From the NCBI RefSeq assembly GCF_022846255.1, contig NZ_AP025682.1: a DNA stretch of 64,000 nucleotides; one strand, given 5' to 3'. How positions within the stretch are numbered: position 1 is the first letter of the stretch; every line of letters begins with the position of its first letter. This document shows positions 3,001-9,000 of this stretch, piece by piece. The stretch is from Escherichia coli (GTDB taxonomy: Bacteria; Pseudomonadota; Gammaproteobacteria; Enterobacterales; Enterobacteriaceae). Position numbers: made by a program.

Positions 3001-6000
3001 CAGCACTTTTAAATCCACACCGTAGCGGCGAGCAGCCTCCTGCATACCATAGTTCAACGATAACCAGTATGAATCTTTCAGGCTGGGATAAAGCGCGCAC
3101 AGTTTCCATGCGCGTTTGGCTTTAAGCGGCGTAGAGGCTTGCACCGTGTAATGCTGCGCATCATGCCAGCGCAACAGGTTATCAGCCGAAAATGCCGATA
3201 ACATGAAAAGGGAAAGAAGTAAAAATAGCAGTACGCGCATGATAGCCTCATCAATAATAAGGCTTTATGCTAGATGCATTCTGCTTTGCGACTCAACCTT
3301 TTTCACCTAAAGGATGACAAAATCACATAAATAATTTAAAAATCATAGCATTAGATTACTTAATGATTAAATAATAGACTGCAAAACGCGACAAAACACA
3401 ACATATCCAGTCACTATGAATCAACTACTTAGATGGTATTAGTGACCTGTAGCAGAGCATTAGCGCAAGGTGATTTTTGTCTTCTTGCGCTAATTTTTTG
3501 TCATCAAACCTGTCGCACTCCAGAGAAGCGCAACGCCTCGCAATCCAGTGCAAAGCTTTGCGTGCCCCCACTACGACCTGCATAACCAGTAAGAAGATAG
3601 CAGTGATGTCAAACGACGCAGCTGACTTCTTTTCTTTCACGACTTCCCCACACCCAGCATGCATACCTTTCTGCCATAACTGTAGTGAATGTCTGCTATG
3701 AGCGAGGAGTGATCATTAGCCTCTCAGCCGGATGCCTTAGAGTACGCCAGAAATAAAAGGATTGCGCTACTGCGCCTTCCTGTTTTGACGGGATGTGGCA
3801 TATGTCATCGCTACCGCTCCCAGAAGTAACAAACCACTTAAACCAAAAGCACTTCTCCATCCCAGACTGTCGAATACCAGACCTCCAGCTGTTGAACCAA
3901 GTGCAATAAATAACTGAATCACCGCAACCATGAGGCCTCCCCCCGTCTCTGCATCTTCGGGTAACGCGCGTGCTATCCATGTCCACCACCCCGTTGGCGC
4001 AGCTGTCGCAAGTAGCCCCCACAGGCTGAGTAGAACGGCAACAGCCCAGATATGGTGTCCGACCAGCAGTAGCGCACCGGTAATCGCTGCCATAAGCAAC
4101 GGGATCATGATTAAGGTCTTATAAAATGTGGTGTTCAGGAATGTTGAGACGATCATTGTGCCGACAAAACCTGCTACGCCTATTGCGAGCAAAATCAGAG
4201 AAAGATCAGAAGGTCCCACTCTGGTGACGCTCTCCAGAAAGGGGCGCACGTAGGTAAATAAAGCAAACTGTCCCATAAAGAAGAGTCCGCAGGCCAGCAG
4301 TCCCGTTGGTACGATGGCAACGCTGAACAGGCGAAGCACAGATCTCTGTGGCTTTTGTGTTTTATCACTTTCCATCGGAGGCAGACTGACCCATTGCCAG
4401 ATGAACGCAGCTATCGCAAGGGGGACCAGACATAAAAAGGCCCCACGCCAACCGATGGTTGTCCCCAGATAGCTACCAAGCGGCGCTGCTACAACGGTGG
4501 CCAGCGCGTTGCCGCCGTTAAAAATTGCCAGTGCGCGGGAAACCTGGTGCTGCGGCACGAGCCGAATGGCGGTTGCAGCCGACATTGACCAGAACCCTCC
4601 GATGACAACACCAATCAGAGCCCTCCCCAGCATATAAATCGGATAGTCAGGTGCTATAGTGATAATTATTCCCGATATGGCCATTAAGACCGTCAGTCCT
4701 AGCAAAAGATATTTTCGATCCAGGTCTCCGACAATACGGGAGATAGTCAGACTGGTAAGCACCGCCAGCGCACCAGAGACAGCAATTCCTTGCCCTGCCA
4801 GCCCTTCGGTAACGTGCAAATCATGGGCAATGAGCGTAAGCAGGCTGACTGGCATAAACTCAGAAGCGATCAGCACAAACACGCAAAGCGTCATGGCGAA
4901 TACGCCGCTCCAGTATGCATGCGTTTTTCCGTATGATTGTTTGAGACTTACAGTGGACATTATTAGCCCCCCTTAATATCGAACCAGCCAGATTCAGGCG
5001 CAGTCGGGTCAGAAGTTATTCAGGGAATAACGACATAATAGTTGGGTGAGAATAGAGGGCGATGCGGCATATTCTGCATCACACCAGACAGTTAAAAGCC
5101 ACCCGTTTACGACAGGTGGCCTGGTAAACCTTTCGGGTTATCTTAAGTTTGCCTTGAAAAATTGCTCAAATTTGGCAAATGGGATCTTACCCGCAACGTT
5201 GTCGTACAGATCAACATGGTTTGCCCCGGGGACAATCACTAACTCTTTCTCTTTGCTGCCGATTGCCTTAAAGGCATCTTCAGCAAAATAGCGTGAATGG
5301 GCTTTTTCACCGGTCACGATGAGTGTAGGGATAGTAACTTCATTAGCATAACTCAGCAGCGGCATATTCATAAATGACAGCGGCATGGTTGCATTCCAAG
5401 CACTGGTTGAGTTGACCGAACGCGCATGGAAACCACGCGGCATGCGGTAATAATCAAAGAACTCTTTCAATACCGGATTTGGATTCGCTGGCAGAGTTTC
5501 CGGCAAAATACGATCGGAAGCGGTGACGTTGCCCTTCTCATCAACGTAAATATCATGCCCGCCTGGCGCGAAAGCGCCATTTTCAGCATCCTTCCAGCGC
5601 TGCATGTTCAGATACTGCAATACGGCACGACGATCGGCAGTGGTGTAGCGGTCTTTGCCATCGCCCACGCCATGCCCCATTGCACGGCTCATGTCATACA
5701 TCACGCTGCTCGCCACCGCCTTGACACGTGTGTCCATCGCGGCGTCGTTTAAGGCCATGCCACCCCATCCGCAGATGCCGAGCAACCCGATACGGTTGCG
5801 ATCCACCTCTTTTTGCAGGCCTAAGAAATCAACCGCCGCGCTGAAATCCTCGGTGTTGATATCCGGAGATGCGACGTTTCGCGGGTAGCCGCCGCTTTCA
5901 CCCGTGTATGAAGGGTCAAAAGCCAGAGTGACAAACCCCCGTTCAGCCAGCGTCTGCGCATACAGGCCACTGGATTGCTCTTTCACCGCCCCGAAGGGGC

Positions 6001-9000
6001 CACTAACAGCAATAGCTGCCAGCTTGCGATCGCCACGATCCTTCGGTATATAGAGATCCCCGACTAAGGTGATCCCGTACCGGTTCGGAAAGGTCACCTT
6101 ACGGTGATCAACTTTCGTGCTCTCAGCAAACGTTTTATCCCATTTCTCGACCTGCGAAACGGGCGCGTTCGGATTGGTTGTATCAGCGTAACTCATATTT
6201 GTGACTCCATTTAATGATACGCATAACAGCATGGCGGGTATCGCAGCTGTCAATTTTTGGGTGAAAGCAGTCATCAAAATTCCCCTCATAAAATGTGCCA
6301 GATACTGGTTTCAGACGGATAACACTGCTGTGCTTTGTTGCAACGTGCACATTATAGTTAGCATTAATAGTGCTAATTAGAGGGTAAAAAATGCTAAGAT
6401 TAATAACATATTGTTCTTAATCGTGATGCAGCAGCAGAGGAAGGATGATGGCGAAACGGGAAAACTATAACGATCTCTATCTGTTTATGAAGGTCGTGCG
6501 AGAAGGGAGTTTTACCGCCGCCGCGCAGAGGCTTGGCCTGGCGCAGTCAGGAATTAGCCGTGCAGTGCGCGAGCTGGAAGAGCGACTGGGCGTGCAGCTT
6601 CTAGTACGCACCACGCGCAAGTTATCGCTCACCCATGCCGGCGAGTTATTCTATCGAAACGTCGAATCTGGATTTGACGCCTTAGATATGGGGCTTGCCA
6701 CGCTGGCCCATTATCGCCATACACCATCGGGTACGGTCCGAATTAATGCGAGCCAGCATGCCATTGATAAAGTGCTTCTGCCGAAGCTGGCGGTGTTTAA
6801 ACAACGATACCCGGATATTCGGCTGGAGCTCATCAGCGAAAGCCGGTTTGTCGATATTATTACTGAGCGCTTCGATGCCGGTATACGTCTGGGCTCGGAA
6901 GTGGATAGCGGTATGGTTGCGGTGCGCATTTCGCCCGATATGGAGATGGCCGTTGTCGGCACACCCGAGCACTTTCGTCGCTACGGATTTCCGCAAACCC
7001 CCACCGATTTAGTGGGTCATCCCTGCATCGCTTACCAGTTCGGCGACGGCAGCCTGTATGCCTGGGAACTCAATCAGGACGGTAAAAAGATCACCCATCA
7101 GCCTCAGGGACAATGGGCCTTTGCTGACAGTTATATGGAAGCCAAAGCCGCGAGGCTAGGTCTGGGACTGGCTTATGTTCCGGAGGAATTGGTGTCTGAT
7201 GATATAGAACAGGGGGCGCTGATCAGAGTTTTGCAATGCTACAGCCAACGCCTGGCAGGTTCATATATCTATTATCCGCACAGAAATGTGTCACCCGCTC
7301 TACGAGCGGTTATCGATACATTGAGAATTTAAGGGATGAAGATGAGATGATTCGCAGGCCTGGGTAATAGTTGGAAAACAACGTCCGTTCCTGGCACAGA
7401 GCAGACCATCGGACTAAACTGAAGGTCCTCTCTGTGCGAGAAACGGAAGTTAGCAATTGTGATACAGACGTGGGGCATTACTCGCTTTACAGTGTGTTAA
7501 TCAATTGGAAACAGGTCAGAATTTATTGGGTGGAATGACACCTTTAAACTTCTTGCGCATCGCAAGGAATATCTCCACCAGACGGTAAGACAGTAGATTG
7601 CGCCACAAGTCCTCAGAATGCCCTTTGCTGGGTTAACCACACGTCGTAATCATCCTTCCAGTGCAGCGGATCAAGATCCGTAATGCTCATAGTCACGCGA
7701 TTTCAAATACAAGCCCAGTGGTGTTATCCGTGAGCTGGACAGTGCTTCCGGCAACATGACTGAGACAGACAAAAAATCAGTTAGTACAGCATTGACTCAG
7801 GTTGAGCAGGAGTTAAAACAAACTGGGCTGGAGCAGTAGAAGCCTGCAGTGAATTCCCTGAATCAGGCGATTAAGTTGGCTTAAGAGTCCGTGTATGCCA
7901 TGTGCCGCGAGATGTCGTGCTATACGTGAAAGTCAGCGATATATATCGTTTTGAAGATGATTTAGGTTACGGGAGTGTCTCTGGGTGATGTATTACTTCA
8001 TCGACATCGGCTACGCACGGGTTGCCGCGATGCAGCGGATGGAAGCTGTCTGGGAAAAGAAAGCTCCGCTTGCTAATATTAGTACATCCGATGAAAAATC
8101 GTGTGTGAAAGTTGCAGATTCGTAATATACTAATGAAGAATGGAGATGTATTTTATATAATAAAAACATCTAAGTAGAGCTTTTTATTTTAAATCCTTCA
8201 TTATTACTGGAGATTTTATGGGTTTTTATAATGACGCACTGAGTAAAATATATAGTGAAGATGATGATTTCCTAATTATAGGATTAACAGGGAGGACGGG
8301 GTCAGGCTGTTCAACAGTTTCTAATATACTGTCATCAGAATCAAGTGAGATAAAGCATTCTCTATTTAACGGTGATTACCCTAAGTCGAATGAAGAAAGA
8401 AAAGAGCGGGTTCTATTTAAATATTTTTCCGTGTCATGGGTTCCATTTATAAAGATACAAGCAAGTTCCATACTGACATTGTGTTTATCAAAGGACTTTG
8501 ATGGTAAGCTGAATAAATTTATTCGGGAAGTGACGGAGTTAGGTAATGACCAAAGAATCCTAGAGTCAACAGTTAATGATCTTGAATCTATACTAAAAGA
8601 AATTAAAGCTAAAGATGAAAGCTCTGATCATGATATAGATGATAAGATAAAATTCATAAATGAATATCTAATAAAAGCGAATACACAAATTAAATCCATA
8701 TTTAAGAACAAGGCTGACTATATAAAACTATATCAAGCTATAGGTAATAATTATAGATCTAGTGGGATGTACCATGACAGTTCATTTAGTGATGATTTCC
8801 ATGGTTTTTTTCTTCCTAAAAAAATAAATGATATAATTCAAAGATTAAGAACCTTAGCAAAAGAAAAGAACACAAAAACTGGAGAAAAGAAACCTATTTA
8901 TATAGTTATTGATGCTATAAGAAATCCGTTCGAAGCAACATACTTCCAAGATAGATACTCATCATTTTATTTAATGGCTGTTTCTACAGAAGAGCATTAC

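Follow-up and report, generated by a model that had tools for sequence, protein, structure and literature searches.

A 64,000-nucleotide stretch of the Escherichia coli contig NZ_AP025682.1 (assembly GCF_022846255.1), hereafter the window, carries a lambda-type prophage between torT and torS, and a block of three genes within it is accessory cargo. The genes encode a major facilitator superfamily (MFS) transporter, an alpha/beta hydrolase with a predicted signal peptide and a LysR-family regulator. Together they form a bounded and portable unit, referred to here as cassette 1, which is probably exchanged by site-specific recombination at two short sites, termed L and R, at its ends. The unit would belong to a widespread exchange system that also takes in the neighbouring anti-phage deaminase gene and the ea31-ea59 genes of phage lambda. 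The initial annotation had described the three genes as a metabolic cargo cassette at 3767-7332. The unit shared with other genomes has sharper ends, at 3691 and 7406, and the bounding sites, the deaminase gene as a second such cassette and the portability of the unit go beyond that description.

Cassette 1 (3691-7406, 3.7 kb) is bounded by two inverted 24-bp sites, each consisting of an 8-bp arm, an 8-bp spacer and a further 8-bp arm. The L-type site at the left end (3691-3714, + strand) reads GTCTGCTA-TGAGCGAG-GAGTGATC as outer arm, spacer and inner arm, and the R-type site at the right end (7383-7406, - strand) reads GTCTGCTC-TGTGCCAG-GAACGGAC from the outside inwards. An 18-bp linker, catcggactaaactgaag (7407-7424), leads to the left site of cassette 2 (7425-7448, + strand), GTCCTCTC-TGTGCGAG-AAACGGAA, whose hybrid spacer TGTGCGAG is R-like at position 3 and L-like at position 6. 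The cargo of cassette 2 is an anti-phage dCTP deaminase-like gene of low guanine-plus-cytosine (GC) content (8218-9996, + strand; Pfam dCMP_cyt_deam_1), which scores 370.7 bits against the NCBIfam model antiphage_deaminase (cut-off 400). The array ends on the tail-fibre side with an R-type site (10601-10624, - strand), GACTGCTA-TGTGCCAG-AAACGGAT. Read from the P arm of the phage attachment site, the b region is thus an array of an L site, the MFS, hydrolase and LysR genes, an R site, the linker, the hybrid left site, the deaminase gene and a final R site.

The consensus of the sites is GTCYGCTN-TGAGCGAG-RAGCGGAC for L and GTCCGCTC-TGTGCCAG-GAGCGGAC for R. Their 18-nt core pattern has two exact and two near matches in the window, four in total against 0.4 expected. 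The best copies elsewhere are perfect 12-8-12 palindromes, for instance GACAGTCCGCTC-TGTGCCAG-GAGCGGACTGTC at position 11283 of locus L005. The sites therefore have the architecture of lox, FRT and dif sites, namely two inverted arms around a spacer of 6-8 bp (8-8-8, and up to 12-8-12). Around the junction of the two cassettes, the region 7372-7452 is a long imperfect palindrome (z = -5.2), and a search of Rfam with this palindromic junction returned chance microRNA-like matches only. Comparison of the site sequence with dif/Xer, gix/hix (serine invertase) and shufflon sfx sites gave no convincing match.

The block begins 380 bp inside the left prophage junction. In an alignment of the window with the empty torT-torS site of E. 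coli K-12, the att core TTCACCTAAAG interrupts the chromosome in the torT-torS intergenic region at 3302-3312 and again at 52380-52390. Positions 1-3300 are E. coli torC-torR-torT, with 97-99% identity to thousands of genomes, and TorS is encoded at 52401-55133. A lambda-type integrase gene (51233-52306, + strand; Arm-DNA-bind_1 and Phage_integrase domains) adjoins the right att core, and the tail-fibre genes lie at 11099-14472. Up to the first site, the backbone of the P arm and b region (3393-3690) is similar to lambda, and window 3393-3709 matches lambda 27327-27644 at 97.5% identity; this lambda segment is on the P-arm side of attP and contains the annotated Int arm sites. Because of this lambda-like P arm and the att, Int and tail-fibre landmarks, the prophage is taken to be of the lambda type and the block to lie in its b region, with attP to one side and the tail-fibre genes to the other, as the initial annotation had held. 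Its claim of a host-like GC content unlike that of the deaminase gene was also borne out (0.50-0.52 in the block, 0.32-0.34 in the deaminase region). Host-like composition would suit the other possibility it had raised, that the genes are native chromosome beside the prophage. However, torT and torS are neighbours with none of these genes between them in K-12, as in almost all E. coli, the block is enclosed by the att cores, and lambda-like backbone lies on both sides of it. The empty-site alignment refutes the native-chromosome reading, whose probability is practically nil.

The cassette was searched by megablast in 5,426 complete E. coli genomes, which form the comparison set. The three genes are present in 102 of them, and all matches begin at window position 3680-3691 and end at 7406. 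With 97-99% identity, cassette 1 is found in four kinds of element. The lambda-type context is that of the window only, being found in none of the 5,426 genomes. The others are a CP4-like island, where the cassette lies beside a yeeP-type GTPase gene and Ag43 (98 genomes), the Z/fun locus of P2-like prophages, between the tail-sheath and tail-fibre-assembly genes (2 genomes), and a prophage beside yjjG, where it lies directly 3' of the integrase stop codon (2 genomes). Exactly the same Z/fun locus is occupied in two sequenced Yersinia P2-like phages, vB_YpM_115 and vB_YpM_117. An inverted cassette 1 was found in none of the 102 carrier genomes (98 + 2 + 2).

The same position also holds other cargo in closely related phages, between the same backbone flanks. 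VCSW7 shares the att site, the P arm and an identical L site with the window, and carries there an MFS gene, a gamma-glutamylcyclotransferase gene and a split LysR gene (L004:10691-13779; GC 0.53). SF-468, with the same three features, carries genes for a DUF4365 protein, a truncated recombinase and a hypothetical protein, after which the same linker and the deaminase cassette follow (L003:7026-10224). In lambda itself (J02459), an R-type site at 24327 and an L-type site at 27345, flanked by the backbone seen in the window, bracket ea31 and ea59. The former reads GACTGCTA TGTGCC-G GAGCGGAC, with a 7-bp spacer, and the latter GTCTGTTA TGAGCGAG GAGCGGAA. The two-cassette array of the window occupies the ea31-ea59 position between the same two backbone sites. 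Additionally, an L-type site is retained beside fun in P2, on its FI side. None of the 5,426 E. coli genomes showed an empty lambda-type docking site, as would be expected if cassettes are replaced and not simply inserted or lost.

When the cassette ends from three contexts are aligned, the shared sequence begins and ceases within the two imperfect inverted repeats. Where the same cassette lies in different elements, the sequences diverge outwards at site position 8 (L) or 0 (R). Where the same element holds different cassettes, identity extends through the outer arm (position 8) and divergence first appears at positions 9-28. In these comparisons, the breakpoints lie at site positions between 8 and 17. 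Moreover, the outer arms are specific to the element (GTCTGCTA in lambda-like phages, GTCTGCTT in P2, GTCCGTTG in CP4-like islands and GTCCGCTT in the yjjG prophage), and the inner arms are specific to the cassette, as with GAGTGATC in all four contexts of cassette 1. Since outer arms follow the element and inner arms the cassette, crossover would lie between the outer-arm boundary and the inner arm. A crossover in the spacer is suggested by this pattern, not proven. Crossover between the arms would be the signature of a reaction of the tyrosine-recombinase type, and the few independent events at hand are suggestive of it.

The imperfect inverted repeats at the ends and the lack of a transposase inside could also describe a non-autonomous transposon (mobile insertion cassette) mobilized by a transposase in trans. 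However, target-site duplications are absent from all four contexts, and transposition is rejected on that ground. The whole inverted repeat does not travel with the element either, as its outermost 8 bp change with the context, and insertions are always at pre-existing sites of the same kind, where they replace other cargo. A transposon is thus a very improbable explanation.

The sites are spread well beyond cassette 1. The R-site pattern was found at 42 loci in viral contigs, and in nearly all of them R and L sites bracket a variable segment of 0.6-5.7 kb. About 30 different cargos are represented, mostly with a GC content of 0.32-0.45, and their products carry TIR, RES, HEPN, RelA/SpoT, SIR2-like, reverse-transcriptase, trypsin-like or ParA-like domains, or none known. 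Such a domain make-up is usual for anti-phage hotspots. The exceptions, whose cargo is metabolic and host-like in GC content, are cassette 1, the VCSW7 cassette and one for iron uptake in strain ABU 83972. Spacer conservation reaches 85-100% at most positions. The double site occurs in 425 of the 5,426 E. coli genomes, with a maximum of two per genome and never within annotated genes, so that it is not a high-copy repeat of the repetitive extragenic palindromic (REP) kind. The linker between adjacent cassettes is 18 bp at almost all junctions examined and 16-17 bp at a few (L031 and Pantoea L145). In Pantoea agglomerans, an array of at least five small cassettes includes a recombinase gene of about 200 codons in one junction. 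The same sites bracketing cargo in lambda-like and P2-like phages and in genomic islands suggest a common cargo-swapping system.

The recombinase seen in some of these arrays has 200-202 aa and consists of a Phage_integrase catalytic domain only, in which the expected Arg, His-x-x-Arg, His and Tyr motifs are visible by eye. Its members are 75-96% identical across Gammaproteobacteria, from E. coli to Idiomarina and Cycloclasticus, and the family is present in 724-908 of the 5,426 E. coli genomes. The gene sits in the junction and not in a cassette, and different cassettes abut its flanking sites. The start codon is preceded, at a distance of 39-49 nt, by an L-type site that is clear in E. coli, Pantoea and Sodalis and degenerate in Proteus, and two loci that share the gene diverge exactly at the spacer of this upstream site. 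On the other side, an R-type site (TGTGCCAR + RAGYGGAC) starts about 18-27 nt past the stop codon in E. coli, Providencia, Proteus, Pantoea, Sodalis, Idiomarina and marine loci resembling integrative and conjugative elements (ICE), and the loci diverge again beyond it. From the position of its gene, this small recombinase is the most likely enzyme to act on the sites, an assignment given slightly less than an even chance. A sequence relative was not found among solved structures.

The loci examined for the small recombinase are L006:4857-5465, L005, L011, L135, L138-L141 and L143-L146. In all cases the gene is placed either between L-type and R-type sites that face outwards or at a cargo boundary, such as ars/cop modules in ICE-like elements and, in Idiomarina, directly after gcvP. 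A Cys-rich protein of 362-367 aa (phrog_37794, without a Pfam family) follows it at L006:5855-6958 and L135:9676-10764. This protein accompanies the recombinase in E. coli and Providencia, but does not follow it at the Pantoea, Proteus and marine loci. It may act as an accessory factor, or it may simply be a cassette that recurs often.

In the proposed mechanism, site-specific recombination would carry cassettes among lambda-like prophages, CP4-like islands, the P2 Z/fun locus and other prophages. L sites would recombine with L sites and R sites with R sites, strands would be exchanged within the spacer, and this pairing would also explain the nearly constant linker. As the L and R spacers differ, the outcome would be either replacement of one cassette by another, as in recombinase-mediated cassette exchange with two different spacers, or the excision and insertion of circles carrying one junction, in both cases without inversion. 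The activity would be supplied by the tyrosine recombinase of about 200 aa encoded in array junctions of other genomes. No copy of this family is present in the 64,000-nt window, so the cassette here would be a non-autonomous passenger. In its broadest form, the proposal describes a lox-like, double-stranded and integron-like cassette system of Gammaproteobacteria. Its junction-resident recombinase would move mostly anti-phage, and also metabolic, cassettes among lambda-like phages (ea31-ea59 included), the P2 Z/fun locus, CP4-like islands and ICE-like elements, with two spacers enforcing exchange and not inversion. This broad form is advanced tentatively, as somewhat short of an even bet.

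Several observations weigh against exchange by a dedicated site-specific recombinase, a mechanism that we infer from the anatomy, distribution and breakpoints of the cassettes. The absence of the small recombinase from the window is one of them. The upstream L-type site is not recognisable at the Providencia, Idiomarina and marine recombinase loci, and the R-type site next to the recombinase has a non-canonical outer arm. The hybrid spacer at the left site of cassette 2 does not fit a strict L-with-L and R-with-R exchange, and the mapping to the spacer depends on roughly five informative independent exchange events. Furthermore, the sites are conserved over about 24-40 bp, which is enough for short-homology recombination of the phage Red type.

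The last point leads to an explanation without any dedicated recombinase, in which the 24-40 bp boundaries are short homologies for general or phage Red/RecET recombination and are kept as insulators or terminators. Modular exchange at conserved boundaries is the classical model of lambdoid phages, the perfect copies of the site fold into strong hairpins (L005, -14.4 kcal/mol, z = -6.3), T-rich tracts follow some R sites, and the lack of the recombinase gene from the window would be expected. However, the single sites of the window form no hairpin (z = -1.3 and +0.7) and the consensus scan predicted no terminators at the sites, so a terminator role was rejected for them. Moreover, loop or spacer bases rank with the best-conserved positions, the informative breakpoints gather between the arms, adjacent cassettes nearly always have an 18-bp linker, and in several genera a conserved recombinase gene is placed precisely between such sites. 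Recombination by short homology alone is accordingly considered unlikely, though it keeps an appreciable share of the probability, and site-specific exchange at L and R is preferred.

Some features of the system recall known ones. Inverted repeats around P2 fun were reported in 2004 (Nilsson, Karlsson & Haggard-Ljungquist 2004, Mol Biol Evol 21:1) and may correspond to the present sites, and the rest of the system may be partly described. The other hotspot of P2, between gpA and gpQ, was treated by Rousset et al. 2022. A literature search for the sites, the arrays, the bracketing of lambda ea31-ea59 and the small recombinase found none, and a prior description beyond the searched literature is possible. 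Compared with the P2 Z/fun locus, the cassettes of the window lie in a lambda-type b region, form a two-cassette array with an 18-bp linker, and include metabolic cargo in cassette 1.

Integrons likewise have exchangeable cassette arrays, imperfect palindromic junctions, a tyrosine recombinase gene where the variable cassettes join, and much anti-phage cargo. In contrast to integrons, the sites here contain no attC (no R''/L''/L'/R' with a GTTRRRY core), and a half-junction and breakpoints are found at both ends of each cassette. The small recombinase scores only 15.9 bits on the model integrase_gron (cut-off 265) and is therefore not an IntI. In addition, the cassettes have their own regulators and promoters, reach 5.7 kb and lie inside phages and islands. 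The sites of Cre/lox and FLP/FRT have the same layout, an 8-bp spacer between inverted arms (12-8-12 in the best copies here), and engineered cassette exchange with heterospecific spacers resembles the present arrangement, as two spacer types flank each cassette. Engineered heterospecific spacers prevent excision or inversion and permit replacement. Unlike Cre/lox and FLP/FRT in such use, the system described here is natural, its enzyme is a candidate, its arms are shorter and degenerate, and its sites have no sequence similarity to lox or FRT. The morons of the lambda b region (ea31, ea59, lom, bor) are similar in that they too are non-essential cargo and lie between attP and the tail-fibre genes. 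In the classical definition, a moron is marked by a promoter and terminator of its own, whereas the cassettes here are defined by the recombination-type sites that bound them.

The acquisition and swapping of cargo at phage and island hotspots, notably of anti-phage genes, is largely unexplained, as surveys give its diversity and not its mechanism. Two defined sites together with a candidate recombinase would open exchange to tests in E. coli with plasmid substrates. If the proposed exchange is true, it would explain how one module can be 97-99% identical in unrelated elements, infectious P2-like phages included, and it would offer a sequence signature for cargo boundaries in genomes. Lambda ea31 and ea59, long known as non-essential genes of the b region, would then be re-read as one such cassette. 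Moreover, a widely conserved module of hydrolase, transporter and regulator is seen to be horizontally mobile and carried by phages.

Open reading frame (ORF) and Pfam analyses agree with the initial annotation on the position and domains of the three genes. The MFS transporter gene (3767-4960, - strand) encodes a DHA1/NepI-like protein of 397 aa (Pfam MFS_1, 8.9e-39). Its nearest NCBIfam models are NepI and the sugar and chloramphenicol exporters, all below curated cut-offs; with 279 bits against the NepI cut-off of 584, it is a family-level relative only. The LysR-family regulator (6445-7332, + strand; 295 aa) has HTH_1 and LysR_substrate domains and is YafC-like, with 200 bits on the NCBIfam YafC model (cut-off 470).

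The hydrolase gene (5138-6274, - strand) belongs to the PA2218/YcjY family according to its Pfam and PDB matches. Its ORF reaches 6289 if the first ATG is used, and the RefSeq homologue starts at the second Met, which corresponds to window 6274. The N-terminus, MTAFTQKLTAAIPAMLLCVSLNGVTNMSYA|D, looks like a signal peptide ending in SYA|D when read by eye, and export is predicted from it. The protein is similar over its full length to Pseudomonas aeruginosa PA2218 (PDB 2hdw, 5.7e-123) and E. coli YcjY (5xb6, 1.6e-42). The three share an aligned GICGWGG motif, with Cys at the nucleophile position, and a conserved HVDLYD motif. Dienelactone hydrolases (DLH) likewise have Cys in the nucleophile position. 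The Pfam matches of the hydrolase are weak and PETase/DLH-like. Substrate prediction, which the initial annotation had called for, gave only weak matches below cut-off, to the AHL lactonase, PET/BHET hydrolase and dienelactone hydrolase families. Papers found to name PA2218 or YcjY give no function for them.

The divergent arrangement of the regulator and its predicted target, also noted initially, is real. A TATAAT (6351-6356) and the interrupted dyad TTAGCA-N7-TGCTAA (6358-6376) lie 5' of the hydrolase gene on the - strand. Both are kept in six Enterobacterales homologues while their flanks vary, so the operator and promoter region is conserved across genera. They fit a putative LysR-activated promoter. 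Promoter and terminator predictions from the consensus scan were no more frequent than in shuffled sequences, with none at the cassette ends. Just 3' of the hydrolase gene, a hairpin (GCCACC...GGTGGC) followed by TTTT is present at 5098-5120 on the - strand. The scan missed it because its loop exceeds 8 nt. The MFS gene may therefore be transcribed separately or by read-through. From these features, the module might be inducible, hydrolysing an ester- or lactone-type compound outside the cytoplasm, in the periplasm, and exporting the compound or its product. This prediction is rather doubtful, and it counts against it that the hydrolase and MFS matches are below the NCBIfam equivalog cut-offs and that PA2218 and YcjY are without an established substrate.

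The same trio, with the regulator divergent from the hydrolase gene and the MFS gene following, is found in the chromosomes of Hafnia, Kluyvera and Enterobacter at 71-90% amino-acid identity, and more distantly in those of Psychrobacter, Luteimonas, Acinetobacter and Pseudomonas. Except in Kluyvera, the bounding sites are absent around these chromosomal trios. In P. aeruginosa, the likeness to PA2218-PA2219(opdE)-PA2220, as to E. coli YcjY, lies in the similarity of the hydrolase and the common GICGWGG motif. PA2219 (opdE) is probably an MFS protein and PA2220 a LysR regulator. A 4,150-bp fragment covering PA2218-PA2219-'PA2210' (as printed; presumably PA2220) is reported to be variably present in that species (PMC8088628). 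The suggestion in the initial annotation that the genes were captured from a chromosome is plausible for the original trio, as it occurs in chromosomes without the sites. The immediate source is more likely a mobile element with a ready-made cassette, because 97-99% identical copies are present in P2-like phages and CP4-like islands.

Some further details were noted around the sites and the cassette. In Kluyvera genomosp. 1 (L056:4963-5028), a trio of 71-87% identity immediately adjoins a complete double site (L, 18 bp, R), and the MFS end of this trio has no recognisable site. In the prophage adjoining yjjG (L133:5996-6024, and L134), the L site lies 2 bases past the stop codon of the 407-aa integrase of that prophage. 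In the window, the 80 bp beside the att core (3313-3392) are unlike lambda, in contrast to the remaining P arm (97.5% lambda-like), as might be expected of a lambda-type integrase with another core specificity. The torT-torS site is presumably the attachment site of phage HK022. Finally, the hydrolase gene of at least one CP4-like-island copy, that of E. coli VTB96959v (L002:10463-11599), is annotated as a pseudogene with an internal stop, and the three ORFs of the window are intact.

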